From a virus: DNA of 64,000 nt. Below are positions 7,636 to 44,159 of this stretch, piece after piece. Under the pieces are notes generated by a model. It made no database searches and had not been told where the DNA came from. It worked only from the letters and a program-made list of their open reading frames with translations. The stretch spans positions 32,308-96,307 of IMG/VR virus record IMGVR_UViG_3300037294_000399; one strand, given 5' to 3'. A program made the position numbers and the translations under genes. How positions within the stretch are numbered: the stretch's first letter is position 1; each line of letters begins with the position of its first letter.

Positions 7636-7704
7636 ATGGATATTAGAAAAAACATAGAACCAACAGATTTTGAAGTTGGGGTCATAATAGGGCGATTTAT
7701 TTAA
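7636..7704 (+). pseudogene. orphan 5' end of nadM-nudix (MDIRKNIEPTDFEVGVIIGRFI*)
   Basis: matches EVGVVVGRFQ of 8563 gene; follows promoter at 7606. Confidence 0.85.
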
Positions 7705-7784
7705 TTTATTTCTTTTTGAAATAGGTTTTATTATAGGTTAGTTGATATTTATTATTAAATAACAATTAATAATTTTAAAATAAA

Positions 7785-8558
7785 ATGGAAAATAAACCCG
7801 TAGTGTATAAAATCACAAATTTGATTAACAATAAAAAATATGTTGGTAGTGCTAAATCATTTATTAAACGTAAAAAAGACCATTTAAATAGATTAAAAAA
7901 TAATAAACACCATTCTAAAAAGTTACAAAATTCTTTTAACAAATATGGTGAAGACGCTTTTGAATTTAATATTTTAGAAGTTGTAGAAGATATCAATCTA
8001 TTAATTCAAACCGAACAAAAATGGATTGATGAATTAAAACCAGAGTATAATATGACATTAATCGCTGGATTAAATAGTCATTTAGGTATGAAACGTTCAA
8101 ATGAAACTAAAAAGAAAATTAGTGATGCTTTGACTGGTAGAAAATTGAGTGATGAACATAAAGAAAAAGTTAGGCAAACGCTAACTGGTAAAAAATTTAG
8201 TGAAGAACGTAAAGAAAAACACAAAAAGGCTTTAAATGAGTCGACAAAATTTAAAGAAATGTTAAAATCAAAAGAAAGAAACGAAAAAATTAAACAAACT
8301 AGATTAAAAAACGGAGGGTACATCGTTACCTATGAAACAAAAAAATTAATAAGTGAAACGTTAAAAAAACAAAATCTACAATCAGCTATTAGTGTTGAAA
8401 TAGAAAAATATAGTTTAGATGGTGGTTTTATTGAATCTTATCCGAGTATGCTCAAAGCTGAAAACGATAATAACATAGGTAGAGGTTGTTTGTATTATAA
8501 TTTGGTTAAAAATAAAAAAGAAGAGTATAAAGGATTTATTTGGAAATTTAAAAATTAA
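7785..8558 (+). CDS. free-standing GIY-YIG homing endonuclease with NUMOD3-type repeats
   Basis: VYKITN..YVGSA..RKKDH, E..WI..LKPEYN, SNETKKKIS repeats. Confidence 0.9.
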   Translation: MENKPVVYKITNLINNKKYVGSAKSFIKRKKDHLNRLKNNKHHSKKLQNSFNKYGEDAFEFNILEVVEDINLLIQTEQKWIDELKPEYNMTLIAGLNSHLGMKRSNETKKKISDALTGRKLSDEHKEKVRQTLTGKKFSEERKEKHKKALNESTKFKEMLKSKERNEKIKQTRLKNGGYIVTYETKKLISETLKKQNLQSAISVEIEKYSLDGGFIESYPSMLKAENDNNIGRGCLYYNLVKNKKEEYKGFIWKFKN

Positions 8559-8562
8559 TTAT

Positions 8563-9567
8563 ATGGAAATTAAAAACTATAAAGAAGAAATAATTAAAAA
8601 TGCAGAAGTTGGTGTTGTTGTGGGGAGATTTCAAACAAACCGATTACATACAGGACATATTGACTTGATTAGCCACGTCCTATCAAATCATAAAAAAACT
8701 GTACTTATCCTAGGTGTGTCTAGAGTACAAAACACCAAGAAAAACCCTTTGGATTTTGCTAGTCGTAAAGCTATGATTCAAAAATTGTTTCCTAGTTTAA
8801 TGATTTTACCAGTAATGGACCAAAGATACGATGAGAAATGGAGTTCAGAAATTGATTCAGCTATTTCTATGCCGTTTGGTGAAAAGAAAACAGTTATCTA
8901 TGGTAGCCGTGATTCATTTATTCCTCATTACAAAGGTAAGTTTCAAGTTATTGAGTTAGAAGCTATTCCTTACCATAACGCCACAAACATTAGAGCAGAT
9001 ATTGCTAAAGAAACTATTGACTCTACTGATTTTAGGTCTGGTGTTATCTACTCAGCATTCAATCAAAGACCAGTTTCTTATCCAACAGTTGATATCTGTG
9101 CATACAACGATGATGGTGAGATTCTTATGGGTAGAAAACCTAACGAGAAGTATTGGAGATTCGTTGGTGGGTTTGTTGACCCGACAGATGAAAGCTATGA
9201 AAAAGCAGCTTTGAGAGAGTTTCATGAAGAAACTGGTGGTAATTGTGTTATCAGCGACTTAAAATATATCTTAAGTCACAGAGTAAAAGATTGGAGATAT
9301 GCCAAAGAAGAGTCTGGGATAATGACTACTTTATTCTTGGGGCGCAGAAATATGGGTTACGCAAAAGCTAGTGATGATATCGCAGATGTTAAATGGTTTC
9401 CAATTAGGGAGTTCAGCAACTTTGATACTGTTAGAACTAAAGTAATGCCAGAACACCGTGAAATGATGTTAGCTTTGGTTAACAAAGTGTACAGCGAAAA
9501 ACTTATACCAAATATTGGTGAAAGATTAGCTGAAAGAACTGATAATGTAACTTACATTGGTGAATAA
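8563..9567 (+). CDS. nadM: bifunctional NMN adenylyltransferase / ADP-ribose Nudix hydrolase (NadM-Nudix)
   Basis: VGRFQ..HTGH, KNPL, Nudix box GGFVD..E..A.RE..EETG. Confidence 0.9.
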   Translation: MEIKNYKEEIIKNAEVGVVVGRFQTNRLHTGHIDLISHVLSNHKKTVLILGVSRVQNTKKNPLDFASRKAMIQKLFPSLMILPVMDQRYDEKWSSEIDSAISMPFGEKKTVIYGSRDSFIPHYKGKFQVIELEAIPYHNATNIRADIAKETIDSTDFRSGVIYSAFNQRPVSYPTVDICAYNDDGEILMGRKPNEKYWRFVGGFVDPTDESYEKAALREFHEETGGNCVISDLKYILSHRVKDWRYAKEESGIMTTLFLGRRNMGYAKASDDIADVKWFPIREFSNFDTVRTKVMPEHREMMLALVNKVYSEKLIPNIGERLAERTDNVTYIGE

Positions 9568-9587
9568 TATTAAATAAAAATAAAAAT

Positions 9588-12111
9588 ATGGGTTTACAAA
9601 AAAAAGTAATTGAAAAATTAGAAACTGCAATAGAAAACAAAGATTGGGTGTCTATTGAAGATATTCAAAAGTATCTTAGCAAAGCATTAACAAAACCGAA
9701 CAACTTGATTTTGTGTTCAGATGCTTACAAATATTCACATCACAGATTCTATGGTGGTGAAATGACCAAGATGGTATCTTACTTGGAATCAAGAGGTGGT
9801 AAATTCTCTGAGACAGTATTCTACGGATTACAAATCTTCTTAAAACAATACTTAGAAGGTGTTGCCATTACGAAAGAAGAAGTTGATGAAGCATTTGACT
9901 ATTTAGGTACAAAGCACGGTGTGTTTGGCCGTGACGATGTATTCGATAGAACAAAATTCGATTATATTATCGAGATGTATGATGGTAAATTACCTATCAG
10001 CCTAAAAGCAGTTCCAGAAGGTTAACAAATGTAGCCATTCATACTAGTAATAGTATGTCTAAAGAAATCTAATTGCTGGGAACCCCTTAGAGCCTTTAAC
10101 ACTACAACGTAGATAGCAATATCAAGCGTGAATGTTTGAAAAGATAAAGGATTGGGAAATCAGCAGCGAAGTTTCTAAATTTAATTTCAATTAATTAGTG
10201 CGTTTTTAAAAGTTTATGATATTTATTAATAAACGCATTAATCATGAGAGAGTATAAAAAAGGGAAAGAATCACCATTGTTTAAAGATTTAACTGGTGAA
10301 AAGTTTGGTAAATTAACAGCTAAAAACTACATTTACGATGACACAAAGAAATATAAAAAACATATGTGGATTTGTGATTGTGATTGTGGTAATGAAGCTA
10401 AAGTTAGAACCAATGAATTAACAAAGGGTGAAAGAACACAGTGTAAACAATGTTCAATCAATGAAGTATCAAAAACTAGAACAAGACCAGATAATGGTGC
10501 ATTAATAACAAGAGTTATTAAACAGTATAAAGCTGGTGCTAAAAGAAGAGGTTATGAATTCTTATTAACAGATGAAAAACTAAAGGAATTAATTTTTTCA
10601 AATTGTTATTATTGTGGTGAAGAACCAAAAATAAATAAGGGTGAAGAACGTTATTTTAGAGGTGGTTTAGAGTTTAAAAGAAATGGAATTGATAGATTGA
10701 ATAATAAAATTGGTTATACAAATGAAAATGTTGTTACTTGTTGTGAAACATGTAATAGAGCTAAAATGTGTTTAGAGCATGATGATTTTTTAACCCTTAT
10801 TAATAAAATATACTTAAATTTAGAAAAACGTTCAACGACTATCCCACAAGGGAGTACAGAACAAGCTAATGGTTCTGGAAATGGTTTTGACCCTAGTAAA
10901 TAGGGTTTTGATATAGTCTAGTCTTTATCTAAAGATAAAGCAGTTCGTAAGAGAACGTATTCAACTGTTGCGAGTTGAGTAGAATGTAAACGTCAGTAGT
11001 TGGAACTAAAAATGTTTTGTTCGTTATCGAATCTTTAGATGAGAACTGCGCATGGTTAACCAATTTTTTAGAAACTATCTTGTTGCAAGTATGGTATCCA
11101 ATTACGGTTGCTACACTTTCAAGAGAAGTTCGTAAAATCGTAGATGCTAGTTTTCAAAAAAACACATCATATGATACTGGGTTAAGAGAGTTTCTGGTTG
11201 ATTACGTGTTGAATGACTTCGGTTTCCGTGGTGTATCGTCTGTACAATCAGCTGGTATTGGTGGGTCTGCTCACTTGGTAAACTTTAGAGGTTCTGATAC
11301 AATCATGGCATCTAAATACATCAGAGATTACTACAATACAGAAACAGTTTATGGGTTATCTATCCCAGCAACTGAACACTCTATCATGACACTTAAAGGT
11401 GAAGAAGGTGAATTGGAAATGATGAAACGAGTACTTACAACATTCCCTACTGGGTTAGTTGCGTGTGTATCTGATTCATACAATATCTTTCGTGCATGTT
11501 CTGAGTATTGGGGAACTGAATTGAGAGACTTAGTACTATCTCGCCCATCAGAACCAGGAAATCAACTAGTTATCCGTCCAGATTCTGGTGACGTGTTAAT
11601 GACATTGAAAGAAATTTTCACTATATTATTCGACAAATTCGGTTACACAGTAAACGATAAGGGTTATAAAGTGTTACCACCACAAGTTCGTGTGATTCAA
11701 GGTGATGGTGTTAATCTAGATTCAATTAAAGAAATCTACGCATTGTTAGAGGAAGAAAAAATATCACCAGAAAACTTAGCTTTAGGTATGGGTGGTAAAT
11801 TATTACAAGCAGTGGACCGAGACACATGTGCATTTGCTACCAAAGCTTGTACAGCCGTAGTTGACGGTGTTGAAGTTGAAGTACAGAAAAATCCTACCGA
11901 AATGGACGAGAATGGGAATTTAACAAAAAGTTTCAAAAAGTCTAAAAAGGGTAGATTGAAGTTGGTAAAAACTGATAACGGTTATATTACTTTAACTTCT
12001 AAAGATGAAGGATTCGAAGAAGCTAAGGATGAACTCGTAGAGGTTTTCCGCATGGGAGATATTCTTAAAGAGTGGTCTTTTGAGGAAATCCGTGAGAGAG
12101 CCAAAATTTAA
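9588..12111 (+). CDS. nadV: nicotinamide phosphoribosyltransferase, exons 9588-10022 and 10993-12111
   Basis: SDAYKYSH, AVPEG|SVVGTKNVLF after splicing, DFGFRG, PATEHS, VSDSY, IRPDSGD, IQGDG. Confidence 0.92.
10023..10992 (+). mobile_element. group I intron in NAMPT
   Basis: 5' exon ends in U pairing with GCCATTC (P1); P/Q AATTGCTGGGAA and AATCAGCAG; R/S TCAACGACTA and GATATAGTC; terminal G; splicing restores the frame. Confidence 0.9.
10244..10903 (+). CDS. intron-encoded HNH endonuclease
   Basis: DLTGEKFGKL, CDCDCG, CYYCG, GIDRLNN..GY...NVVTCCETCN..K. Confidence 0.88.
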   Translation: MREYKKGKESPLFKDLTGEKFGKLTAKNYIYDDTKKYKKHMWICDCDCGNEAKVRTNELTKGERTQCKQCSINEVSKTRTRPDNGALITRVIKQYKAGAKRRGYEFLLTDEKLKELIFSNCYYCGEEPKINKGEERYFRGGLEFKRNGIDRLNNKIGYTNENVVTCCETCNRAKMCLEHDDFLTLINKIYLNLEKRSTTIPQGSTEQANGSGNGFDPSK

Positions 12112-12126
12112 CTAATAAAAGCCATT

Positions 12127-13038
12127 CTATAGAATGGCTTTTATGTTTTTTAATATATCATCTTCATCATGTTTGATACTAATTAGGTTAATCTTTTTGA
12201 AACTACAATAATCAAGTTTTATCTTATCTTTCTTTTGTCGGTCCTTTAAACCCAATACACCACCCCATTGTTGTATAGTTTCAAAGTGTTGTCTACCTTG
12301 ATATTCAATACATGTATTATATTTTGGTAAATAGAAATCGAATGGTAATGGTCTTTTATCTCTACAATCTGGAAATCTGTGTTGTGGTGTAAATTCAATA
12401 TCATTTTCAAGTAACCATTCTAAAATTTTTTCTTCACCTTTGGATATTATACATAATGGACATCTAGTACCACTTTTATGGTTCGATGGTAATTGTTCAA
12501 AATCACCATGTTTAGAACAGATAATAGTAACCTTGGTCCTATTATCAACATAATTTACTTTAGAGTAATCATATTTGTTTCCGTGAACCAATTTAGCTTT
12601 TTTAATAAAAGTATCTGTATCGTCACTAAAATCGTTTGAAACCTTATCTAATGAACATTGTTTACAACCACTACCATTTAAATGATTAGTGGCTTTTTGT
12701 GTAAATTCACCATGCAACGGACATTCTATAGTAATACAATTTAATGCACCAATATAATTTATGTTACTATAATTGTAAAAAAAACCATGAATTTTTTCAG
12801 CTTTTTCAATAAATTTATTTCTAGTTGTTTTTGTGCTATTTCTACCACATGAATAGCATCCGTAACCCTTTAAGTGACCATTTGGTGTTTGTTCAAATTC
12901 TCCATGAATAGGACATATAATGATTACTTTAATATTTCTATTGGTATAGTTAACTTTAGTGTAATCATATTTATCACTATGTAGAATAGTTGCCTCAATA
13001 ACAAACTCAGCTGTTGTTTTACGTTTCTCAGCACCCAT
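12127..13038 (-). CDS. DUF723-type Cys/His-repeat endonuclease with C-terminal PD-(D/E)XK/Vsr-like domain
   Basis: three KYDYS..Y..IICP.HG.F.Q...H..G.GC repeats; SKGE, LPFDFYLP..IEYQG.QH. Confidence 0.85.
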   Translation of the reverse strand: MGAEKRKTTAEFVIEATILHSDKYDYTKVNYTNRNIKVIIICPIHGEFEQTPNGHLKGYGCYSCGRNSTKTTRNKFIEKAEKIHGFFYNYSNINYIGALNCITIECPLHGEFTQKATNHLNGSGCKQCSLDKVSNDFSDDTDTFIKKAKLVHGNKYDYSKVNYVDNRTKVTIICSKHGDFEQLPSNHKSGTRCPLCIISKGEEKILEWLLENDIEFTPQHRFPDCRDKRPLPFDFYLPKYNTCIEYQGRQHFETIQQWGGVLGLKDRQKKDKIKLDYCSFKKINLISIKHDEDDILKNIKAIL

Positions 13039-13190
13039 TATTTAAGAGAATTAAAATGTTGTTCTAATAACCAGTTAATTAATTTAGATTTATTGATTTT
13101 TTCATCAGACATTAATTCATAATTATCTTTTGAAATAGATAACGATATTTTTGTTTTTTTATCTTCTTGTGGTTTTATTTTTCTTCCCAT
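13038..13190 (-). CDS. 50-aa ribbon-helix-helix-like protein (absent from ORF track)
   Basis: MGRKIKPQEDKKTKISLSISKDNYELMSDEKINKSKLINWLLEQHFNSLK; TAATG overlap with nuclease start. Confidence 0.75.
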   Translation of the reverse strand: MGRKIKPQEDKKTKISLSISKDNYELMSDEKINKSKLINWLLEQHFNSLK

Positions 13191-13260
13191 GATATTTTAT
13201 TTAAGTATTTGTTATACTAATAAATATCTAGAAATAATATAAAAGTCATAAAATTATGAA

Positions 13261-13398
13261 TTATTTTAATTTTTTATCTTCATAGTGTTTGGTTAATAAC
13301 TCATCGATAAGTTTAGAACGATTATAATTACCCTCATCTATTTTTTTAATTAGGTTTTTATCTATGGCTACACCAATAATTTTATTTTCTTGTTTCAT
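13261..13398 (-). CDS. 45-aa ribbon-helix-helix-like protein (absent from ORF track)
   Basis: MKQENKIIGVAIDKNLIKKIDEGNYNRSKLIDELLTKHYEDKKLK; paralog at 40104-40232. Confidence 0.7.
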   Translation of the reverse strand: MKQENKIIGVAIDKNLIKKIDEGNYNRSKLIDELLTKHYEDKKLK

Positions 13399-13471
13399 AA
13401 TCTTTTTATATAAATATATGTTTTTTATTGATATTGTAAATTAAATGTTGTATCTTTGTAAAAAATATAAT

Positions 13472-13780
13472 ATGATAAAATTAAGTGATACACAAAACTT
13501 TGCAACCAAAGCATGTTATGCCATTGTAAATGGTGAAGAAAAGAACATAATCAAGTCACCAACTGAAATGGACGCTAACGGTAACATTACAAAATCATTT
13601 AAGAAATCAAAACAAGGTTTGCTTAAATTGGTTAAGAATGAAGATGGTACCTTTAGAACAGTAACTTCAATGGATACTGAGTTCAACAATGTTACAGACG
13701 AGTTGGTAGAAGTATTTAGAAACGGTATAATCACTAAAGAATGGACATTCGAAGAAGTGAGAGAACGAGCAAAACTTTAA
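13472..13780 (+). pseudogene. orphan second copy of the NAMPT C-terminus
   Basis: DTQNFATKAC...KEWTFEEVRERAKL aligns with DTCAFATKAC...KEWSFEEIRERAKI; own TATCTTTG promoter and ATG. Confidence 0.9.
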
Positions 13781-13782
13781 TT

Positions 13783-14277
13783 ATGGGAACAAAAAACGTT
13801 ACAATAACAGACGAGTTTGTGTTCTTTTGGAATGGGGTTTACAGTCAATGGCATCCATCAAAGTTTGTAATTGCTGGAATCACTTACACTAGTTGCGAAC
13901 AATACATGATGGCACAAAAAGCTTTATATTTCAAAGATATGGAAGTATATGAAACTATCATGGTTTCTAACAACCCAAAAGAACAAAAAGCTTTGGGTCG
14001 TAGTGTTAAAAATTTTGACACTAAGCGTTGGAATGAAGTATGTAGAGAATTTGTTTATCAAGGTAACTTGGCCAAGTTTACACAAAATTATAACTTTAAA
14101 TCGACACTATTAGCGACTGAAGATAAAGAAATTGTTGAAGCAAGTCCCTACGATAAAATATGGGGAATTGGAATGGGTATTGAGCACCGAAATATTGAAG
14201 ATAAGAGCAAATGGGAAGGTCTTAATTGGTTAGGTGAAGCTATTATGCGAGTAAGAGAAACTTTAAAACAAAAATAA
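13783..14277 (+). CDS. NADAR (YbiA/DUF1768) family protein
   Basis: SQWH, EQYMMAQKA..F.D, K.LGR.V.NFD, VEASPYDKIWGIG, GLNWLG..IM.VR. Confidence 0.92.
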   Translation: MGTKNVTITDEFVFFWNGVYSQWHPSKFVIAGITYTSCEQYMMAQKALYFKDMEVYETIMVSNNPKEQKALGRSVKNFDTKRWNEVCREFVYQGNLAKFTQNYNFKSTLLATEDKEIVEASPYDKIWGIGMGIEHRNIEDKSKWEGLNWLGEAIMRVRETLKQK

Positions 14278-17815: not shown

Positions 17816-19415
17816 ATTTAAAGATTTAACTGAAATTGAAATTGAGAAATTTAGGTTAGAATATGTTAATAGGTTAGAAAATAATTTAACAGTTGAGAAA
17901 TTAGCAATTAAAATTAGTAATGACTTAGGGTTATCGGAAAGAACCGTTAGAAAATGGTTTAAAAAATTAAACTTCAAAGAAAAAGTTGAAATTGAACCAG
18001 AACAGTATGTAAAAGCCAAAACAAGAGTCCATGACGGGACTAAAAAACGTTTTATAATAAGTTGGGCCCAGAACAATACACCTGTTCATACTGGTTTGAT
18101 GAAAAACTTAGAAGCTTATGGTGAATTTATCGATGCTGATATCCATATCATAGCTGGTAGGTATAGAAACCCTACTAGTATGTGGACAAATCAACAAGAA
18201 GAATCAGAATTTTGGGTTTCAGAGGTATTACCATACTTAGACGCTAATAGACATGACATACATAAGTATGTGTCTATTATGTCAGATATTAAGATTCAAC
18301 CAACTGCTGTGAACCCAATGACTGGGTTACAAGCGTTGAGTGGTATTAATTCTTGTGTGTTTGGTAGTCCAAAGGTTCAATTAGAAATGATTCCAGTATT
18401 AGAAGGTAACAACCCTAAAATGATGACTACTACTGGTGCGGTAACTAAAAAGAATTATACTGATTCTAAAGCTGGTAAAACTGGTGACTTCCATCATACA
18501 TTTGGTTTTGTTATCGTTGAGATTAAAGATGATAATACTTTTTTCCTAAGACAGGTAACTGCTGATGACAAAACAGGTAACTTTACTGATTTATATTATC
18601 GAGTTGAAAAAGGTGAAGTAAGTGAAGTAACTAAATTTGCTGCGGCTATCTTAGGTGATATTCACTACGGACATCATGACCAAGAAGTTTTAGATACAAC
18701 GCTTAGTTTATTTGAACGAGTAAAACCACAGCACGTTATATTACATGACGTATTTGATGGTTCTTCAATTAGTCATCATGAGATGAAAGACCCTTTCATT
18801 CAATACGGTAAAGAAATATCTGGCACCAACGACTTAGGTAAAGAGGTTGATTTTATGTTGGAATCTTTAAAGTCGTTTGAAAAGTTTGATAATGTGGTTA
18901 TTGTTAGAAGTAATCATGATGATTTCTTAGACCGTTGGCTTAAGAATGAAGATTGGAAGAAACAACCAACATACAAAAATTCTAGGCTTTATATGAAAAT
19001 GTCTGATATGTTATTAGAACAATATGCTAATGACCCATACAACGTAAAAGGTGTAATCCCAAGTATCATCAATCAGAAGTTTCCTAAGTTTATCACACTA
19101 GGTCGAAGTGCTTCTTATCGAGTTAAAGATTGGGAACTGGGTCAACATGGTGATATTGGTTCAAATGGTAGTCGAGGTTCATTATTACAATTCAGAAAAT
19201 TAAACACTAAGATTGTTGTTGGACATTACCACTCGCCTGGTCGTAAGGACGGAGCGTTAGCCGTAGGTACATCAACAAAATTAAGGGTAGGTTATAACAG
19301 AGGTGCGAGTTCATGGTTACAATCACATGTTATCATCCACACAGATGGTCGAGCCCAACACATAAATTTTATGCTAGATAAAGACGGTAACTTGGGTTAT
19401 ACTACTTTTGAATAA
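17802..19415 (+). CDS. HTH + metallophosphoesterase, resembling phage T5 A1-like proteins
   Basis: N-terminal HTH (LGLSERTVRKW), AQNNT, GDIH, HDVFD, SNHD, HGD.G.NGSRGS, GHYHS. Confidence 0.65.
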   Translation: MVKIKFKDLTEIEIEKFRLEYVNRLENNLTVEKLAIKISNDLGLSERTVRKWFKKLNFKEKVEIEPEQYVKAKTRVHDGTKKRFIISWAQNNTPVHTGLMKNLEAYGEFIDADIHIIAGRYRNPTSMWTNQQEESEFWVSEVLPYLDANRHDIHKYVSIMSDIKIQPTAVNPMTGLQALSGINSCVFGSPKVQLEMIPVLEGNNPKMMTTTGAVTKKNYTDSKAGKTGDFHHTFGFVIVEIKDDNTFFLRQVTADDKTGNFTDLYYRVEKGEVSEVTKFAAAILGDIHYGHHDQEVLDTTLSLFERVKPQHVILHDVFDGSSISHHEMKDPFIQYGKEISGTNDLGKEVDFMLESLKSFEKFDNVVIVRSNHDDFLDRWLKNEDWKKQPTYKNSRLYMKMSDMLLEQYANDPYNVKGVIPSIINQKFPKFITLGRSASYRVKDWELGQHGDIGSNGSRGSLLQFRKLNTKIVVGHYHSPGRKDGALAVGTSTKLRVGYNRGASSWLQSHVIIHTDGRAQHINFMLDKDGNLGYTTFE

Positions 19416-19985
19416 GTTAATTTATCACCAACATTGTCATTATATTTAATAATAATAAGTGGAATATTGTTTAGTAAACAATATTCCCTTTTTATTTTAT
19501 CATTAATTTTCCTAGAATTAAACCCTTGAACCCCACCAAAATGTTCAACTACTTTATAATGTTGAATCCCGTTAAATTCAATACAAATATTAAAATCTGG
19601 TAAATAGAAATCAAAAGGTAATTTTAATTTATTTTTACAATTATTAAATTTATATTGTGGTAAATAATTGATATTAAATGACTCTAAAAAAAACTCTAAT
19701 TTTTTTTTCACCTAGTGATTCATTACAAGTTGGGCAACCATTACCATTCTTATGATTATTTGGTGTTTGGTTAAAAACCCCGTGTTTTAAACATTTTATA
19801 ATTATTTTTTTATGGGCTGAAACATAAATAACTTTAGAATAATCATATGTTTCACCATGTATTTTTTTAAAATCGTTAATTAATTTTAAGATTGTTGGTT
19901 TTTCTAACCCAGCACATTGTTTACAACCTTGGCCATTTTTATGGTTATTAATTGTTTGTGTGAAATTACCACTTTTTTTTATCAT
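19397..19985 (-). pseudogene. frameshifted, 5'-truncated DUF723/PD-(D/E)XK endonuclease
   Basis: two overlapping ORFs joined across an A-run; YDYSKV, C.KHG.F.Q, LPFDFYLP. Confidence 0.8.
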
Positions 19986-24121: not shown

Positions 24122-24493
24122 ATGAAATTTGATATATTAAAAACAAGACGGGGGAAACTTTCAGAAAAACTAAATAATGAGATTCAAAAACCCAAACCAA
24201 ACATTGAAAATGTTTTAAGAATCATAGATGATTATGAAAAAAATAACTTGGAAACTATAGATAAATTAAAGAAAGAAAAGTTATTTGAAACAAAAAGAAT
24301 AAGTGGTGCGCTTAAACAAACAATAAATGCACATTCAAATATAACAAAAGAATTAATTGGGAGTGCAACTAAAAGAATAATGGGTGCGTTAAAATCAAAT
24401 GATTTAACTCAATCCCAAAAAATTTGTAAAAAAATTAGTAGTATTTATCATACTTTTATAAATATAATTATATTTATAATTAAACTAGAGTTT
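24122..24493 (+). CDS. hypothetical protein with replaced C-terminus (reads in frame into the downstream RHH gene, stop 24625)
   Basis: LIGSATKRI.GAL.SN repeated in 25430-25594. Confidence 0.65.
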
Positions 24494-24625
24494 ATGAAAA
24501 CAAATAAAGATAAAATATCTGTAACTATTTCAAATAAAAATAATGAGTTATTAAATAACTTATCTATTAATAAATCTAAATTAATAGATAAGTTATTAGA
24601 TAATTATTTCAAAAAGATTGATTAA
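24494..24625 (+). CDS. 43-aa ribbon-helix-helix-like protein
   Basis: MKTNKDKISVTISNKNNELLNNLSINKSKLIDKLLDNYFKKID with own ATATTTAT motif. Confidence 0.7.
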   Translation: MKTNKDKISVTISNKNNELLNNLSINKSKLIDKLLDNYFKKID

Positions 24626-25429: not shown

Positions 25430-25594
25430 CCAATAACTTCAGTGTTGATTGGTTCAGCAACAAAAAGAATACATGGTGCTCTTTTAAGTAATGGTTCAAA
25501 ACATAATCACTATCTAAGGGTTCACAAAGCAACATTAATGCTAATAACAATGGTTTTAATAGTGGCAAGTGTATTTGTGGTATTAATAAAATAA
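25430..25594 (+). pseudogene. orphan original C-terminus of gene 24122, with TM helix
   Basis: PITSVLIGSATKRIHGALLSN vs NITKELIGSATKRIMGALKSN. Confidence 0.8.
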
Positions 25595-26454: not shown

Positions 26455-26514
26455 ATGGAAAATATAAATAAATTATCGGTATTTGATTTTGATGGAACGT
26501 TGGTTGTAAAATAA
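26455..26514 (+). pseudogene. orphan 5' end of HAD gene (MENINKLSVFDFDGTLVVK*)
   Basis: matches RLAVFDFDGTLL of 27252. Confidence 0.85.
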
Positions 26515-27251: not shown

Positions 27252-27776
27252 ATGGAAAAAAAAATAACTAGACTAGCTGTTTTCGATTTTGACGGCACTT
27301 TATTAATGACACCTCTTCCAGAATTTGGTAAAAAAGAATACCAAGAAAAAACTGGAAAGGTTTGGCCTTTCCCTGGATGGTGGGGACAACCTTTGAGCTT
27401 AGATATGGATATCTTTGATATGCCAACGGTGCCAATGGTTACTTCAGCATATAAGAAAGAGAAAGTTAACGCAAACACATGTATGGTTATGTTGACTGGT
27501 CGAATAGTGAAGCTAGGTGACTTGGTAAAGAAAATCTTAGACGCAAAAGGGTTAATATTCGATGAGTACCATTTCAACAGAGGTGGTAGTACTGATGTTG
27601 CTAAAATAAAAACAATGGAATCATTGTTAGAAAAATATGCTAACGTAAATGAATTAGAAGCTTGGGATGACCGTAAGGAGCATATCCCAATATTTCAAGA
27701 ATTTGGTGATAAGTTGGTTAAAGCTGGTCGATTAACGAGTTTTAAAATTAATTTAGTTCCAGCACATAGACATTAA
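27252..27776 (+). CDS. HAD phosphatase, Swiss-army-knife RNA-repair-like
   Basis: FDFDGTL..TP, GWW, LTGR, WDDR..H. Confidence 0.8.
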   Translation: MEKKITRLAVFDFDGTLLMTPLPEFGKKEYQEKTGKVWPFPGWWGQPLSLDMDIFDMPTVPMVTSAYKKEKVNANTCMVMLTGRIVKLGDLVKKILDAKGLIFDEYHFNRGGSTDVAKIKTMESLLEKYANVNELEAWDDRKEHIPIFQEFGDKLVKAGRLTSFKINLVPAHRH

Positions 27777-27786: not shown

Positions 27787-28431
27787 TTAATATTGGTCTC
27801 TTTTTATATTTCTATTAGTATAACTACAAAGTGGTTGTAGATTGGTGTAGTGATTAAGTTTAATAACGTCTTCTTCACACATTGCTGAACTAAGTGGTAG
27901 TATATGGTCAATATCCCAAGCAGTATTAATTTCTTTGGGTACCCCATTCCAATTACCACGATTTTTCCAATTCATCCATTGTTCAAACTTAGATTCGATA
28001 TGGGTTTTAAATTCTTCATAAGAACACCCAAGTATTTCATACGACCTAGATTTTCTATAAAAACCTTTTTTCTTTAAACTTTGATTTATTGATGCGGAAA
28101 CACATCTCTTTAGTTTATAAAGAATATCAGTACTCATCATTTTCTTTACATAACCATATTTAGCTTTTTTATGTTTTTCTGGGTTTTCTAACCCCCATAA
28201 TTTCTTTTTTAAATTTAATTTTTCTTTATTTTTAATAGCATATTCTTTATCTTTTTTTTTCTTTTTTTCTTTATCTAATTTTTCGTATTTATTTTTATTA
28301 ATGATTAAACGTTCTTCATCACTTAAAGCATTATATCTAGCTTTTTGTTGTTTTGATATTCTTAATTTATTTTTTTTACGATATTCCATATCGTAAAGTC
28401 TTTTAGCTTCTTTTTTTTCTTCTAGTGTCAT
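27787..28431 (-). CDS. HNH endonuclease-like protein
   Basis: ILGCS..E...HIE.KF..WM.W.N.G, WDIDHI.PL, HYTNLQPL...N. Confidence 0.85.
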   Translation of the reverse strand: MTLEEKKEAKRLYDMEYRKKNKLRISKQQKARYNALSDEERLIINKNKYEKLDKEKKKKKDKEYAIKNKEKLNLKKKLWGLENPEKHKKAKYGYVKKMMSTDILYKLKRCVSASINQSLKKKGFYRKSRSYEILGCSYEEFKTHIESKFEQWMNWKNRGNWNGVPKEINTAWDIDHILPLSSAMCEEDVIKLNHYTNLQPLCSYTNRNIKRDQY

Positions 28432-35892: not shown

Positions 35893-36174
35893 TAAAAAAC
35901 AACAGATGAAAAAGAAATATTAACCTGTGAGTGTCACTCAACCGACCATCAAGTTATAATTCTTTATAGTGAAGATGAATTAGATAATGGTAGCAAATAT
36001 CCAATGTGTTATTTCCGTATTCATTTAAACAAAAAACCATTTTGGTAAAGAGTTAAATACGGAATCAAATATATTTTTGGGTATAAATGCAACTATGGTG
36101 CATTTGATGAATTTATCTTTAACCCAAAAGATGCGAACAAATTACAAGAATTAGTAGATTACTTAAATAAATAA
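35885..36174 (+). pseudogene. disrupted hypothetical gene
   Basis: EILTCECHSTDHQ...KPFW*RVKYGIKYIFGYK with frameshift and TAA. Confidence 0.55.
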
Positions 36175-36176
36175 AT

Positions 36177-36404
36177 ATGACTAGTAGAGACTTCGCATTC
36201 TGGCTTCAAGGTTTCTTTGAAGTAGCTAACCCAATTACTATCGGTAGCAAAGAAACCGATATGATTAAAAAACACTTGAACCTTGTGTTTAAGCATGAGA
36301 TTGACCCAAGCATGGGTGGTCCAGAACATCAAGCTGAATTAAATGAAATTCATAAACCACAATTTCCTATGAGGGACAGTGATGGTTCAGTTTTAAGGTG
36401 TTAA
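36177..36404 (+). CDS. conserved phage hypothetical protein
   Basis: DFAFWLQGFFE..IKKHL.LVF. Confidence 0.75.
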   Translation: MTSRDFAFWLQGFFEVANPITIGSKETDMIKKHLNLVFKHEIDPSMGGPEHQAELNEIHKPQFPMRDSDGSVLRC

Positions 36405-36471
36405 ATAAAAAACAAAAAAAATGATACAAAATACTTGCATTTTTAAAAAAGAGTTAGTACCTTTGTATCAT

Positions 36472-36955
36472 ATTAATCACATATAGAAAGACAAACAAGT
36501 AATAAGTTAGTTACAATACTACAAGAGGTGTTATGTTTGTTAAGTAAGATAAGTTGTAAACTTAACTGTAGAAAGAATGTAAGTCTCATAAGGTAATTTG
36601 AGCAAAGTTTTATAAGGGTGTTAAGCTAGGCGGTGTATGAGGGTTTGGGCTCATATAACTTATACATTCTTGGTGATATGTGATTTATTAAAATATTTGT
36701 TCAAAGTCAACAAGTAGTGTTAACCACACTGATACCAGTAAGGTCTGGTGCGTGATATTAGGCTTAGCAGCTGAGATGTAATCAAAACTTATGAACTTGG
36801 TATGTTCAGACACTATAGTCAAACACAAATGGCGTTTGTTGATTAGAGGTAGCACTTAGTCGGCTAGACCGAAAATAGTAGGGAGTACGAGTTCCTAAAG
36901 AGGTGAAATATCCTCGTGCATGTACGCTACTCATCGTGTTGTGACGATGGCAAAT
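36472..36955 (+). ncRNA. large structured ncRNA candidate (~480 nt)
   Basis: ORF-free, after promoter 36458; stems AGAATGTA/TACATTCT, TATGAG/CTCATA, TACCAG/CTGGTG, GTAGC/GCTAC, TCGG/CCGA, GAGG/CCTC, CATCGT/ACGATG. Confidence 0.6.
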
Positions 36956-36958
36956 ATT

Positions 36959-37123
36959 AGACAAGTGGTGGAAAAACTGAGCTGGCTTCGTAGGGAGCGG
37001 TGGTTCTAGGAGAATCTTAAATCAGTAGACACAATAACGGCTGGAGGTGTGGGCAAATCTCATTAAATACCCAATCCGAGCGTGGCTAGCTTGGCGGTGC
37101 TGGTTCAAATCCAGTCTTGTCTA
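36959..37123 (+). ncRNA. expanded tRNA-like RNA (165 nt)
   Basis: AGACAAG/CTTGTCT acceptor, Leu-type D stem GTGGTGGAA...TAGACAC with large insert, T arm GCTGGTTCAAATCCAGT, no canonical anticodon arm. Confidence 0.7.
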
Positions 37124-37134
37124 CAAAAACCGTT

Positions 37135-37289
37135 CGGGAGGAAGAATGATTGGATTTTCTTTTGTTTAACGTGTTAGCTTAAAATTGGAGAGGTGTACAA
37201 CTCAAAGAGGAGGTTACTAACATTTAGAAAGAAAGTTATTCGCTGAGGGCATGACCTAGAGATTGCGGGTTCGAGTCCCGTTCTCCCCA
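37135..37289 (+). ncRNA. tRNA-Met(CAT)-like RNA with ~85-nt D-loop insertion
   Basis: CGGGAGG/TCTCCCC, GAAT/ATTC D stem enclosing a long hairpin, loop with CAT, GCGGGTTCGAGTCCCGT. Confidence 0.65.
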
Positions 37290-37391
37290 CAAAACCTATA
37301 ATGACACAATAGAATAGGTTGTGTACTGATAGAGATGCAGTTACGATTTTTTAATTGTAAATATCTTGACAACTAGGAAAGACTAGTGAAT

Positions 37392-37484
37392 TGGTTAGCT
37401 TGGATAGAAGGTCGGTTCGACTCCGAAGGAAGGTGTTGGCACGGGTAGCTCCCTGTAGAGAGGTTCGAGTCCTCTCCTAATCAC
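37392..37484 (+). ncRNA. tRNA-like RNA with two T-arms
   Basis: TGGTTAG/CTAATCA acceptor; TCGG-TTCGACT-CCGA and GAGAGG-TTCGAGT-CCTCTC. Confidence 0.65.
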
Positions 37485-37489
37485 AAATC

Positions 37490-37801
37490 AACAGCATCTT
37501 GGGGAGATTTGTATCTTATTTCCTCTTGACGAAAACCAATAACACGGGGTACGCTTTCAGTGTGAGGCAACTAGTCGGTAGAAACATGATGGTCTGGATT
37601 TGAACGAAACATCTCTTGTGGGGGTTTGGTTGGTGAGAAAGCTTAACGGCTTTGAAGGTACTTAACTGGCTAAGAACATCAAACAAGAGGAGCCAGAGAG
37701 TTTTACGTTGACGAGGTTTACAAAGGCAAAGCTTGTTTTCGGTGATGTGTGACAGAACCGATGGTAGAAGGGAAAACCTCTGACGACTAGGAAAGACTAG
37801 T
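37490..37801 (+). ncRNA. structured ncRNA candidate ending in TGACGACTAGGAAAGACTAGT
   Basis: ORF-free and GC-richer; same terminal motif at 37367-37387. Confidence 0.5.
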
Positions 37802-37806
37802 AATTT

Positions 37807-37904
37807 GCGAGAGTGGCGAAGTGGTAAACGCTAAGGTCTTTAGCCCGAAGTACAAGGGAACAACTAGGGACTGGGTGTCGGTGGTTCGAGTCCACCCTCT
37901 CGCA
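37807..37904 (+). ncRNA. tRNA-like RNA with elongated anticodon arm
   Basis: GCGAGAG/CTCTCGC, D arm GCGAAGTGGTAAACGC, GTCTTTAG/CTAGGGAC stem with 20-nt loop, GGTGGTTCGAGTCCACC. Confidence 0.75.
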
Positions 37905-38001
37905 CAAAATTGGGGAATAGCAACATGAAGGTCGGCAAACTTTCAGACGGTTATAATCCTTTCTATCACGTTTAGCTTTGCCGAGCGACATAGTGATAGT
38001 T

Positions 38002-38183: not shown

Positions 38184-38282
38184 ATATCGTTAGTTCAATG
38201 GTAGAATACCGAAATGGGAACACATCGGAAGATGCAGTACCAATCGCTTGCGGTGACATAGGTTCGATTCCTATACGATGTA
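38184..38282 (+). ncRNA. tRNA-like RNA with 12-nt anticodon loop and long variable arm
   Basis: ATATCGT/ACGATGT, TAGTTCAATGGTAGAAT, CCGA/TCGG, ATAGGTTCGATTCCTAT. Confidence 0.7.
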
Positions 38283-38574: not shown

Positions 38575-38832
38575 ATGTGCCAGCGCTGGTCATTTTTACT
38601 TAAAATAAGATTTTGTAATAAAACTTTAATGCCTTATAAATTTGAAATATTACTAGAGACAACGCATTCACCTAATATAATTTTTAATACTGAAATTGAA
38701 AATAAACAAATTTTTAAACCATCAAAATATAAACCTTTAAATAAATTTAGTGGGTGGAATGAATGTTTTAACGTAAATATCGCAGAAAATTTGATAGAAC
38801 TAATAACGAAAAAAATAAAACATGGCAAATAA
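38575..38832 (+). pseudogene. C-terminal remnant of an endonuclease like 38929-39879
   Basis: MPYKFEIL..IFNTE..KYKP..KFSG.NECF vs MPYKYDII..VFNIE..KYTP..KFHGMGECY. Confidence 0.7.
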
Positions 38833-38932
38833 AAAAATTTGTACCAATAAGAAAGCATACTTTGAGTATTTCATTCTAGAGAAACACACTGCTGGTATCC
38901 AACTACAAGGTTCAGAAGTTAAAGAAAATTAA
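38822..38932 (+). pseudogene. orphan 5' end of smpB (MANKKICTNKKAYFEYFILEKHTAGIQLQGSEVKEN*)
   Basis: aligns to TNRKARFEYEIIETFVSGIVLVGSEVK of 40310. Confidence 0.9.
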
Positions 38933-39879
38933 TTTAATTGTTTATTACAATAGTTTAAAATTTCTGGTTTATCTTTTATATAATAACACTCACCCATACC
39001 ATGGAATTTTATAGTCGGGGTGTATTTAATTTTTTTAAAATACCTGTGTAACGCTTTTTCTATGTTAAACACTAATTCTGGTTCAGCTTCATGTGTTAAT
39101 ATTATATCATATTTATAAGGCATATGTTTATTACTAGGGTATCTTCCTTTTAAGTTGTTTATTGTTATACCTATTTTAATGAATTCTTCAGTATCATTAT
39201 AACATTTAATAATATATAACATTGGTTTAGCCTTTATGTTTTTAGATATAATATTTTTCCAACTTGATAGTGAAAAACTATGTGAATTATTAATTGCTTT
39301 TTTAGACACCGTTATATAACCACATTTACGGCAACCACAACCTTTTAAATGCATATTAGGTGTTTGTTCAAAGTCACCATGTATTGGACAAATAATTGTG
39401 ATATTAACTTTACTATTTAAATAAATAATTTTAGAATAATTATATTTATCGCTATGAACTTTTTCGGCTTTTAATATGAACTCATTATTTGATGTGGTTC
39501 TATCCTCATTAAAACACTTCCAACAACCAACACCACTAATATGAGAACTTGGTGTTTGTTCAAATTTATCATGTATTGGGCAAATTATTTTAATTTTTTC
39601 ATAACAATTTTTATAATCTACCAATGAATAATTAAATTTATTTTTATGAACTATATTACATTTATTAATAAATTCTTCATTAGTTAAACCTTTTCCAGAA
39701 CATTTAATACAACCATTACCTTTTAAATGGTTATGTACTAATTGTTCAAAAACACCATGTTCAGAACAAATTATTTTAACGTTAGTTCTTTTATTAATAT
39801 AGTTAACTTTTGAATAATCATATTTATCACCATGTATTAATTTAGCTTTTGAAATAAAATTTTCAGTTTTATTTTCCAT
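38929..39879 (-). CDS. DUF723-type repeat endonuclease with C-terminal GIY-YIG/T5orf172-like domain
   Basis: three KY.YS..IIC..H..FEQ...H..G.GC repeats; LYII..FIKIGIT..R..E..LH. Confidence 0.85.
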   Translation of the reverse strand: MENKTENFISKAKLIHGDKYDYSKVNYINKRTNVKIICSEHGVFEQLVHNHLKGNGCIKCSGKGLTNEEFINKCNIVHKNKFNYSLVDYKNCYEKIKIICPIHDKFEQTPSSHISGVGCWKCFNEDRTTSNNEFILKAEKVHSDKYNYSKIIYLNSKVNITIICPIHGDFEQTPNMHLKGCGCRKCGYITVSKKAINNSHSFSLSSWKNIISKNIKAKPMLYIIKCYNDTEEFIKIGITINNLKGRYPSNKHMPYKYDIILTHEAEPELVFNIEKALHRYFKKIKYTPTIKFHGMGECYYIKDKPEILNYCNKQLN

Positions 39880-40027
39880 TTTTTAAAGTGTTAAAATGTT
39901 CAATTAATAACCATTCGAAGAATTTACTCTTATTATTAATTACATCTAAATGAATTATTAATTCATTAGGAATCTGGATACTTATGGTTTGTTTTCTCTC
40001 TTTTGGTGATAATTTGTCTTTTTTCAT
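39869..40027 (-). CDS. 52-aa ribbon-helix-helix-like protein (absent from ORF track)
   Basis: MKKDKLSPKERKQTISIQIPNELIIHLDVINNKSKFFEWLLIEHFNTLKNGK; paralog of 13038-13190. Confidence 0.75.
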   Translation of the reverse strand: MKKDKLSPKERKQTISIQIPNELIIHLDVINNKSKFFEWLLIEHFNTLKNGK

Positions 40028-40103
40028 AATATTTTGTTTGTATACATATAAATATCATGAAACAATGAAAACGGTGAAAAAACCGTAAAATAATTAAATT
40101 ATT

Positions 40104-40232
40104 TTACTTTTTGTTAATATAATTTTTTAAAAGACTAACTAATAACTGAGTACGGTTATAATTACCTTCTTTTACTTTTTTAATTAACTCTGTTGGAAGG
40201 GTGATGTTGAGTTTAGTTGTATCTGTTTTCAT
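40104..40232 (-). CDS. 42-aa ribbon-helix-helix-like protein (absent from ORF track)
   Basis: MKTDTTKLNITLPTELIKKVKEGNYNRTQLLVSLLKNYINKK; paralog of 13261-13398. Confidence 0.7.
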   Translation of the reverse strand: MKTDTTKLNITLPTELIKKVKEGNYNRTQLLVSLLKNYINKK

Positions 40233-40309
40233 AAATATAAATATAGTTATAAAAATTAAATAAGTAAATAAATTGTATAATTAGAAATTATTTAGTACCT
40301 TTGTATATT

Positions 40310-40753
40310 ATGAAAGTTATTTTAACTAATCGCAAAGCGAGATTTGAGTATGAGATTATCGAAACTTTTGTATCGGGAATCGTCTTGGTTGGGTCTGAGG
40401 TAAAGAGTATCAAGGCTGGTAAGGTTTCTATTGTTGAGGCTTATTGTTTCATCTCCAATGGTGAGTTGTTTATCAAAGGCATGCACATTGCTGAACATAA
40501 AGAAGGTGGTAAACATAACAATCATTTGCCGCTAAGAGATAGAAAGCTTCTTATGAATAAAAAAGAAATCTTTAAGTTAGATAAAAGTTTATCACAAAAG
40601 GGCTTGACTATTGTACCTATTGAAGTTATAATATCGAACACTGGGTTCGTCAAGGTTAACATTGGTTTGGGTAAAGGTAAACACTTATACGATAAAAAAC
40701 AGTCCATCAAAGAAAAAGACTTAAAAAGAGATTTAGAAAGAAACACTGATTAA
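40310..40753 (+). CDS. smpB: SsrA-binding protein SmpB
   Basis: NRKARFEY, G.VL.GSEVKS, R.RKLL..KKE, GLTIVP, GKGK..YDK. Confidence 0.95.
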   Translation: MKVILTNRKARFEYEIIETFVSGIVLVGSEVKSIKAGKVSIVEAYCFISNGELFIKGMHIAEHKEGGKHNNHLPLRDRKLLMNKKEIFKLDKSLSQKGLTIVPIEVIISNTGFVKVNIGLGKGKHLYDKKQSIKEKDLKRDLERNTD

Positions 40754-42778: not shown

Positions 42779-42804
42779 ACCCAGAACTAGTTCTGGGTTT
42801 TTTT
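42779..42804 (+). terminator. rho-independent terminator
   Basis: ACCCAGAAC-TA-GTTCTGGGT + T run. Confidence 0.85.
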
Positions 42805-43155
42805 ATATCCATACTTTTTTAATATCCAAATTATTTAACATTTATTTAGTTGACGGTGATTATCACCGCAGCCGACACCAACACGTAAACCCGAACACTC
42901 TATTGAGTATCAGGTCGCATGGCTCTTTATAATGTAGTTGGTAAGACCACAGGTTTTGTGAAAGTTCTACAAAGGTAATACAAATAATTTAATCATCCAA
43001 ACAAATACTAAAAAAAAATAATTCCAGGAAATTCATAAAAATATTTGGTGGATTAAAATATTATATGTACCTTTGCATTATAATAATTAACACAAACCAA
43101 AAATGGAGAAATTAAAGATAGAGCAATAATATAAATAATATAAATAATATAAGTT

Positions 43156-43785
43156 ATGGCAAAGACAATTGAAAAAATAGCAGATTTAGAGTACAATGAA
43201 TTGGTTACTCTAGGTATTATCGAACAAAACAATGATTTAAGAGAAATCTTCACAGATGAAATTAAAGCACCGTTTACTATGTTGTATTCTCTGCAAAAAG
43301 AGGGTAAGTTAAATGAAGAAACCAAAGAATTGTTGGTTGGGTTGTTTGAAAACCTTATTCTTACAAGTAAAGATTTAATCAATAAGTATCAACGTTTAAT
43401 GCAGTCACCACCAACACCACAAACTGAACCTATTGAGGTCGCAGAGGTGATTGAAGTTGAAGAAGTAGTTGAGCAAGTTGTGGAACCTATCAAGGTCATT
43501 GTCAAGGACAAAGTGTCCGAGAAGAAAGAAGCTTTGATTCCTAGAAGATATGGTAAAGAAAAGATTACCAAGGACATTGAAGCACAAGGTGGTGTTGCAT
43601 CACCAGTTCAACGTGCTATGTTAAAGGGTAACACACTGAAGAATATCTATGTTAACCTTAATAATCGTCTTATTAAAGATTATTTTACAAAAAATGATAC
43701 TTTAAACAACGAAGACTATCGAAAAATAACATCTGCAATCAAAATAATTGAACAGGTTATTAACCCAATAATAAAAAAAAGTTAA
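43156..43785 (+). CDS. hypothetical protein with replaced C-terminus
   Basis: LKNIYVNL...ED.RKI.SAI duplicated at 43998-44159. Confidence 0.75.
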   Translation: MAKTIEKIADLEYNELVTLGIIEQNNDLREIFTDEIKAPFTMLYSLQKEGKLNEETKELLVGLFENLILTSKDLINKYQRLMQSPPTPQTEPIEVAEVIEVEEVVEQVVEPIKVIVKDKVSEKKEALIPRRYGKEKITKDIEAQGGVASPVQRAMLKGNTLKNIYVNLNNRLIKDYFTKNDTLNNEDYRKITSAIKIIEQVINPIIKKS

Positions 43786-43789
43786 GAAA

Positions 43790-43930
43790 TGATTTTATTT
43801 TTTTTAATTAATCTGTTATGATAACTACACATAGGTTGTGTGTTAGAAAAATGAAATAGTTTATATAACATATTTTCTGTTTTAGCTGATGATAATGGAA
43901 CTATATGGTCAATATCCCATGTCTTATTTA
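43790..43930 (-). pseudogene. HNH endonuclease C-terminal remnant
   Basis: WDIDHIVPLSSAKTENMLYKLFHFSNTQPMCSYHNR matches the 27787-28431 C-terminus. Confidence 0.75.
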
Positions 43931-43997
43931 ATTGATATATATGTACCTTTGTATTAATTAAGTATTTAATCAGATTAATATTGTACTGATTAAATAT

Positions 43998-44159
43998 TTG
44001 AAGAACATCTATGTCAATTTGTCCACTAGAGGTATCAAGGATATGGTTGGCGGTACTGACTCTTTGTCTGACGAAGATTGTCGTAAGATTGTATCAGCGA
44101 TTACAACATTTGAAAGACAAATGGGTGATATTGTAAAAACAAAAGCAAAAAAGAAGTAA
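43998..44159 (+). pseudogene. orphan original C-terminus of gene 43156
   Basis: LKNIYVNLSTRGIKDMVGGTDSLSDEDCRKIVSAITTFERQMGDIVKTKAKKK*. Confidence 0.85.

Follow-up and report, generated by a model that had tools for sequence, protein, structure and literature searches.

Probable homing endonuclease cassettes that replace gene ends in a large-phage contig

Six genes in a 64,000-nucleotide stretch of viral DNA (positions 32,308 to 96,307 of IMG/VR record IMGVR_UViG_3300037294_000399; hereafter the window) have one end present in two diverged versions, with a homing endonuclease gene, or the relic of one, lying between them. We read these six loci as free-standing homing endonuclease cassettes of an 'end-replacement' type, with a probability of about 0.85. 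The mobile unit appears to pair the nuclease gene with a full but diverged version of one end (5' or 3') of the gene beside it, accompanied in three cassettes by one or two small genes resembling ribbon-helix-helix (RHH) genes. This reading is built on sequence comparisons that document the presence or absence of cassettes at exact sites, native displaced ends beside foreign in-frame ends, transfer of a cassette as a unit, and cassette decay.

The window is the final part of a 96.3-kb viral contig (G000) of about 30% G+C, and carries tRNA genes, NAD-salvage genes, SmpB and a sigma-70-type factor. Related contigs in IMG/VR measure 200-370 kb, so this one is a fragment of a large phage. Comparisons were made with a sister contig (G001; 69.5 kb, a separate and separately assembled IMG/VR record), whose identity to the window is 88-99% and varies block by block, and with a set of relatives and other viral contigs designated by L-numbers. 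A DNA-level search of a phage collection found no close relative.

Layout of the six loci

All six loci share a common layout, in which a complete gene carrying one version of its end is adjoined by a nuclease gene or relic, and beyond it the same end occurs again in truncated form (the orphan). The new end replaces the 5' end at nadM, HAD and smpB, and the 3' end at NAMPT, gene 24122 and gene 43156. The component parts are listed by locus, with window coordinates and strand.

Locus 1, nadM
7636-7704, plus: orphan, apparently native nadM 5' end (MDIRKNIEPTDFEVGVIIGRFI; 22 codons, with the stop right after GRF)
7785-8558, plus: GIY-YIG homing endonuclease gene with NUMOD3 (Pfam GIY-YIG E 2.5e-10; PHROG 314 'homing endonuclease' E 1.4e-36)
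8563-9567, plus: nadM-type NMN adenylyltransferase/Nudix gene, beginning MEIKNYKEEIIKNAEVGVVVGRF
8563-8631, plus: new, putatively cassette-borne nadM 5' end, codons 1-23, starting 4 nt past the nuclease stop

Locus 2, NAMPT
11017-12111, plus: second exon of NAMPT, with an apparently foreign new 3' end at 11818-12111 (97 codons)
12127-13038, minus: homing endonuclease gene, DUF723 zinc-finger repeats plus a probable Vsr/I-Bth0305I-like (EDxHD-type) catalytic domain
13038-13190 and 13261-13398, minus: two small RHH-like open reading frames (ORFs) upstream of the nuclease, with weak Pfam signals
13472-13780, plus: orphan, apparently native NAMPT 3' end, which, like the end in empty alleles, runs past the start of the next gene (13741)

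Locus 3, gene 24122
24122-24625, plus: gene 24122, of unknown function, body to about 24349
24350-24496, plus: new 3' end of gene 24122, with a transmembrane helix
24497-24625, plus: RHH segment, an in-frame read-through from the new end
24628-25413, plus: GIY-YIG homing endonuclease gene with NUMOD3
25430-25594, plus: orphan, apparently native 3' end of gene 24122, having LIGSATKRIxGAL in common with the new end

Locus 4, HAD
26455-26514, plus: orphan HAD 5' end (19 codons, stop after DFDGTLVVK)
26561-27247, plus: GIY-YIG homing endonuclease gene with NUMOD1/3
27252-27776, plus: HAD (HAD_SAK_1) gene, new 5' end at about 27252-27311

Locus 5, smpB
38575-38832, plus: relic of an older T5orf172 nuclease gene just upstream of smpB
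38822-38932, plus: orphan, apparently native smpB 5' end (stop after GSEVKEN)
38929-39879, minus: homing endonuclease gene, DUF723-like zinc-finger repeats plus a T5orf172 domain
39869-40027 and 40104-40232, minus: two small RHH-like ORFs
40301-40753, plus: smpB, new 5' end at 40301-40405, likely true start the ATG at 40310

Locus 6, gene 43156
43156-43785, plus: gene 43156, of unknown function, new 3' end at 43630-43785
43800-43955, minus: HNH homing endonuclease relic, last 52 codons
43998-44159, plus: orphan, apparently native 3' end of gene 43156

An initial annotation of this DNA, made from the letters alone, had described a nuclease gene or relic between two diverged end copies at these six loci, and every pair was recovered where it had been placed. 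Five of the six were also found by a blind tblastx self-comparison of the contig, which missed the nadM pair, too short for this search. The duplicated stretch spans 19-97 codons, and its two copies are 38-65% identical as protein and 50-70% as DNA across the six pairs (65% amino-acid and 61% nucleotide identity over 96 codons for the NAMPT orphan and new end), in line with the strong DNA divergence that had been noted. The junctions likewise fall at the motifs first reported (GRF, DT..FATKAC, LIGSATKR, DFDGTL, GSEVK and LKNIYVNL), such that the orphan starts at the motif in the 3'-end cases and stops at it in the 5'-end cases. The invaded genes stay whole, with SmpB and NAMPT giving full-length Pfam/NCBIfam matches.

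The six cassettes fall within about 37 kb of one phage contig, and end replacement is the arrangement used by six of the roughly 10 homing endonuclease genes or relics in the window. One more end-duplication cassette, the seventh, is found outside the window on its upstream side (12842-14163 of the full contig), where a minus-strand HNH gene is flanked by two 52-codon versions of a gene end that are 52% identical.

Empty alleles in a sister contig

The sister contig lacks cassettes 1-3 (nadM, NAMPT and gene 24122) and has cassettes 4-6 (HAD, smpB and gene 43156). In three-way alignments of loci 1-3, its sequence tracks the body of the window gene up to the motif and thereafter the orphan of the window instead of the new end; the breakpoints are sharp and fall at GRF, DT..FATKAC and LIGSATKR. 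Empty alleles in which the orphan-type end is joined to the gene body, as the initial annotation had predicted, are thus present at all three loci; at gene 24122, the end that is contiguous with the body in the sister contig has 81.6% amino-acid identity to the window orphan. The nuclease genes themselves are missing from the same places, that of nadM from the sister contig and L037, that of NAMPT from the sister contig and L011, and that of gene 24122 from the sister contig and L041-L044.

For the three loci that are occupied in both contigs, relatives supply the comparison. Single-copy ends, with no cassette between two copies, were found at HAD in L041-L044, at smpB in L001-L008 and at gene 43156 in L050-L053. 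The HAD gene directly follows the gene 24122 homologue in L042-L044, which is the ancestral order, and an HNH gene stands between the two in L041; all four have a single HAD 5' end. The nuclease of the HAD cassette recurs at 99.9% identity in the sister contig and 100% in L039. Distant relatives are without these six cassettes, and two of them, L004 (RHH plus HNH) and L007 (T5orf172-type), have nucleases beside the same genes.

Native orphans and foreign in-frame ends

The NAMPT locus gives the clearest phylogenetic separation of the two ends. Relative to L011 and L012, amino-acid identity is 96.7% for the NAMPT body, 95.9% for the orphan and 65% for the new end. In separate maximum-likelihood trees, a check that had been suggested beforehand, body and orphan both group with the sister phage L011 (support 99/96 and 100/99 respectively), and the new end groups elsewhere, as sister to L020 (99/96), itself found on a different branch in the body tree. 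With the new end foreign in these trees and the genes complete in frame, the earlier proposal of a chimeric target protein encoded by a gene that is kept whole is supported.

Identity values point the same way at two further loci. The smpB orphan is 62-81% identical to the N-terminal ends of relatives and the new end 53-62%. At gene 43156, the orphan is 78% identical to L003/L050 and 70% to L002/L051 (L003 and L050 denoting one and the same gene of G003, L002 and L051 one and the same gene of G002), compared with 52% and 46% for the new end, which only the most distant relatives resemble more closely. The orphan thus appears to be native and the in-frame end foreign at NAMPT, judged by trees, and at smpB and gene 43156, judged by identity; at nadM and gene 24122, contiguity in the sister contig indicates that the orphan is the native end.

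Transfer as a unit and cassette decay

Within the smpB cassette the window and the sister contig differ by 1 mismatch in 1493 nt (38909-40401; 1492/1493 identical), a tract comprising the T5orf172 nuclease gene (951/951 nt identical), the two RHH-like ORFs, a spacer and the new N-terminal end of smpB. The flanks are far more diverged, at 86.5% identity for the orphan, 93.1% for the smpB body and 89.1% for the sigma gene (Fisher p 1e-42). GSEVK codons bound the identical tract on both sides: it begins inside those of the orphan and runs as far as those of the new copy, after which the body sequence of each contig is its own. Such an identical island in diverged flanks, the strongest of the new findings, shows that the cassette, gene end included, moved as a unit. 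It entered at least one of the two lineages after their divergence, the recipient's own end becoming the orphan. Most differences between the orphans of the two contigs are synonymous, the pattern to be expected of N-terminal ends that were both in use until recently.

Locus 6 shows the same pattern. There are 3 mismatches across 43320-44005 (686 nt), a tract that includes a 310-nt co-conversion tract in the gene body, next to an orphan that is 90.1% identical (p 5e-6), and at HAD a 2.1-kb tract is 99.6% identical.

Several stages in the life of such elements are found in the window. Loci 1-5 hold intact cassettes; at locus 6 the nuclease is down to 52 codons and the chimeric gene and the orphan persist, a state that is the same in the sister contig. 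A frameshifted relic of a DUF723-type nuclease occupies 19397-19985 and is further deleted in the sister contig. An intact HNH gene at 27787-28431 is a plain intergenic insert without an orphan, absent, together with gene 28530, from distant relatives. In L004, intact RHH and HNH genes stand directly after the gene 43156 homologue with no orphan, an arrangement that appears to represent the donor-type state.

Outside this phage, relatives of the Vsr-like nuclease in other viral contigs show about 4 independent, clear flank duplications among 76 testable loci. Two of them are in unrelated contigs with the same layout: in one (L131, 116-2478), the last 22 codons of a 478-aa gene that no family search could name are repeated and the nuclease ORF reads into the second copy; in the other (L132/L133; L132 2299-4012), 56 codons of the end of a small gene are repeated past the nuclease.

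Nucleases and accompanying genes

The nucleases comprise three GIY-YIG enzymes, one that is Vsr/I-Bth0305I-like, one T5orf172 enzyme and one HNH relic, all from homing-endonuclease families. Several families are therefore involved, as the initial annotation held, but they are not all unrelated, since T5orf172 is regarded as a GIY-YIG subfamily (PMC10448857). The two enzymes that had been called 'DUF723-type' do have DNA-binding repeats in common, but their catalytic domains differ. The C-terminal domain of the 12127 nuclease (NAMPT locus) has no Pfam name, and a PDB sequence search with it gave no match; residues D48, E59, H65 and D85 are invariant in an alignment of 41 homologues. Its AlphaFold model (pLDDT 90) gives the I-Bth0305I catalytic domain and Vsr as the best Foldseek matches, at probability 1.0 with a weak E of 5e-3, suggesting a Vsr/I-Bth0305I-like fold. 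Relatives of the whole nuclease are at most 51% identical among the best 80.

The HNH remnant reported at gene 43156 was confirmed: it preserves the final 52 codons of an HNH gene and is 60% identical to the intact one in L004. The relic at 38575-38832 is 40% identical to the C-terminus of the 38929 nuclease and 53% to L007, in which a full-length nuclease gene stands in its place.

RHH-like ORFs lie directly upstream of nuclease genes, two in tandem in the NAMPT and smpB cassettes (the two pairs being mutually paralogous), one at gene 24122, and one upstream of the HNH gene in L004 (11496-11657). Pfam support for them is weak, except for the segment fused to the new end of gene 24122. These ORFs may encode regulators of the nucleases.

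The cassettes differ in how their genes would be expressed. At nadM and HAD the gene restarts 4 nt past the nuclease stop, and the nuclease would be read from the upstream signals of the target gene by way of the orphan, with the gene itself coupled to the nuclease gene. At smpB the nuclease gene is divergent, and the cassette would have to bring the start signals of smpB. Scans of the cassettes for sigma-70-type promoters did no better than on shuffled sequence in this AT-rich DNA, and nothing was concluded from them.

A hairpin with a 13-bp stem followed by a T run (12115-12144) is placed exactly between two stop codons, that of the chimeric NAMPT gene and that of the convergent nuclease gene; it is likely a two-way terminator carried by the cassette.

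One further candidate nuclease gene, at 25608-26450 between gene 24122 and HAD, was rejected: it encodes a membrane protein of the ABC_membrane_3 type. Of this gene the sister contig retains the final 26 codons only, and distant relatives, in which gene 24122 and HAD adjoin, lack it altogether.

A possible route of end replacement

In the route that we propose, the nuclease would cut the target gene at or near the conserved motif in a cassette-free genome, and the break would be repaired from an occupied genome, with the gene body serving as one homology arm and the donor's orphan as the other. Everything between the two arms would be copied in, and the recipient's own end beyond the break would be displaced to become the new orphan. 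The foreign end, which differs at most wobble positions, would complete the gene in frame, and the resulting allele would presumably escape cutting. The first occupied allele may have arisen from a donor in which the nuclease gene simply stood beside the gene, by one-sided homologous repair combined with an illegitimate join; one-sided illegitimate homing has been shown for T4 intron homing (Parker et al., 1999, as cited in PMC2988022).

The smpB junction illustrates what such an event would leave behind. Empty alleles have GGT TCA GAA GTT AAA TCT ATT, the orphan keeps only the left half of this sequence, and the new copy reads GGG TCT GAG GTA AAG. Loss of a target site would fit these changes, but divergence is just as high throughout the new end. 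We therefore rejected synonymous changes at the junction motifs as a sign of deliberate recoding; such differences are what would be expected of any homologue that is 50-70% identical.

Weighing the alternatives

Under ordinary phage mosaicism, ends would be swapped by general recombination, and the nucleases would be passengers at the boundaries that do not cut. Homing endonuclease genes are indeed known as markers of genetic-exchange boundaries in phages (PMC10448857), and cleavage of the present genes by the nucleases is a prediction. Moreover, 64 of the 76 testable loci of the Vsr-like family in other contigs have no detectable flank duplication, so that the layout is either an occasional state or one whose orphans decay fast. 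We nevertheless regard mosaicism as improbable. The duplicated ends enclose a nuclease gene or relic in seven of seven cases (the six loci and the one outside the window), the smpB identity island ends exactly at the duplicated motif on both sides, and plain recombination would replace an end rather than leave an orphan adjoining a nuclease each time.

Local tandem duplication of each end, followed by divergence in place and later insertion of a nuclease gene, would explain why the copies are close together and on the same strand. It is very hard to reconcile with the NAMPT trees, in which the orphan has L011 as its sister and has hardly diverged from it and the new end is sister to L020, with the lack of duplication at three loci of the sister contig, or with a nucleotide identity of 50-70% between copies, far beyond the 4-10% divergence between window and sister contig. 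An assembly chimera of co-existing strains, conceivable for a metagenome contig in which loci 1-3 are occupied as nowhere else, is scarcely credible, given that the other three occupied loci recur in the separately assembled sister contig (and the HAD cassette also in L039) and that a chimera would not yield complete in-frame genes, nucleases precisely between homologous ends and motif-exact breakpoints.

Several points weigh against end-replacement homing itself, in addition to the scarcity of flank duplications in the Vsr-like family and the confinement of occupied loci 1-3 to this one contig. The ends at nadM and HAD are too short for a native or foreign call by identity alone, those of HAD, at about 19 codons, being too short to tell which copy is native. 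None of the new ends has a close donor among the sequences compared, L020 being the best at 78% for NAMPT, and searches of viral and metagenome contigs with the nadM GIY-YIG nuclease gave matches of only 25-48%, with no near relative and no donor. Finally, nuclease activity, sites of cutting and allele immunity enter the argument as predictions from sequence, as does any role for the RHH-like genes.

Other features of the window

NAMPT is interrupted a second time, at 10026 to about 11010, by an insert that carries an HNH/EndoVII-like ORF (10244-10903). Compared with uninterrupted relatives, the exons abut exactly at AVPEG|..VVGTKNVLF, and the insert matches Rfam RF00028 at 27.9 bits (E 7.5e-5), below the gathering score of 50. 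The same insert is present in L010; a different one, located 26 codons further along, is found in L011/L012. The window insert is likely a group I intron with an HNH ORF. NAMPT/nadV appears to be targeted repeatedly. The 'splicing-free' strategy put forward initially thus describes the six cassettes, which need no splicing, but the same phage appears to use splicing as well.

A full-length SmpB is encoded, yet neither ARAGORN nor Rfam found a tmRNA in the 96-kb contig. Upstream of smpB lies an ORF-poor region of 1.9 kb (35893-37806; 37% G+C) that is 96% conserved in the sister contig and matches no Rfam family. It is followed by two tRNA-like genes of about 99 nt (37807-37905 and 38184-38282), one of which is given a four-base anticodon (gccc) by ARAGORN; these genes may contain introns. 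Further along, 46766-47192 and 48355-48754 encode similar peptides (47-63% identity) 1.4 kb apart with no nuclease between them, and are probably tandem paralogues rather than an orphan pair.

Comparison with known systems

According to the usual account, homing elements avoid harm to the host gene either through splicing or by taking an intergenic position. Group I introns and inteins also invade conserved gene sites harmlessly, but do so by RNA or protein splicing, of which the six cassettes have no need. The provision of a substitute gene end has been reported at a single nuclear gene of yeast and at a few genes of fungal mitochondria, and is considered considerably rarer than the splicing or intergenic modes (bioRxiv 10.64898/2026.08.13.744650).

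Among phages, the free-standing T4 Seg and Mob endonucleases (PMC2988022) and the T5orf172/CapR-type homing endonuclease genes of ICP1-like phages (PMC10448857) belong to the same nuclease families as those described here and have modular zinc-finger repeats. They likewise lie beside conserved genes, co-convert flanking sequence and vary in presence or absence among close relatives, but are intergenic or split a gene into two polypeptides (Aeh1 nrdA-mobE, T4 gene 39/60). A keyword search of these two papers yielded no report of a duplicated, diverged end that keeps the invaded gene whole, nor was a phage description of the end-replacement layout found in the literature searched, a body that leaves most subscription journals outside its coverage.

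The fungal mitochondrial precedent cited in the initial annotation holds. Gene hybrids with mobile endonuclease ORFs (mORFs) are known from atp6 of Allomyces macrogynus (Paquin et al., 1994) and from atp6, atp9, cox2 and nad3 of Glomus (Beaudet et al., 2013, PMC3630166). As at the NAMPT locus, a foreign C-terminus is followed by an endonuclease ORF and a native C*-terminus downstream, the native copy being near-identical to that of a sister species and the inserted copy about 64-81% identical and placed elsewhere in trees. The mORF elements differ in residing in organelle genomes, in using LAGLIDADG or GIY-YIG enzymes that are often fused in frame to the host gene, and in being C-terminal only, whereas the phage loci add N-terminal cases, minus-strand nucleases with regulator-like genes of their own, and direct evidence for unit transfer between diverged genomes.

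A second published precedent is provided by the yeast WHO elements at FBA1, in which the displaced end serves as the second homology arm and homing swaps in a cleavage-resistant allelic end (Coughlan et al., 2020, PMC7282813; Osborne, Monnin & Wolfe, 2026, bioRxiv 10.64898/2026.08.13.744650). Here too, a homing endonuclease gene lies beside a host gene whose end has been replaced by an allelic variant, the displaced fragment is kept downstream and no splicing is involved; the new end confers resistance through its sequence differences, and relics of old invasions accumulate, to which the older T5orf172 relic at smpB is a phage counterpart. In contrast, the WHO nucleases are intein-related LAGLIDADG enzymes of a eukaryotic nuclear genome that act on one target gene and replace 3' halves only. 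The phage cassettes involve GIY-YIG, T5orf172, Vsr/EDxHD-like and HNH nucleases and six target genes, with RHH-like genes in three cassettes and three 5' cases, where translation start signals too have to be provided or passed on by the cassette. Cleavage and allele specificity have been demonstrated for Who6, and are predicted for the phage cassettes. The kind of element is thus known from yeast and fungal mitochondria, and what is apparently new is the phage setting, the use of 5' as well as 3' ends, and the range of nuclease families.

Six cassettes, three sites caught empty in a sister contig and a 1.5-kb identical island suggest that the mode may be frequent in large phages. We lean slightly towards the broader view that end-replacement homing is a common and general third mode of homing in large phages, beside introns and inteins, which employs several unrelated nuclease families at both 5' and 3' ends, uses the orphan as the second arm, carries its own start signals and RHH regulators and forms a main route to chimeric genes. 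If true, it would account for orphan gene fragments and for sharp mosaic breakpoints inside conserved phage genes, would provide six predicted nuclease-target pairs, and would caution annotators and phylogeneticists that gene ends adjoining homing endonuclease genes may differ in history from the gene body.

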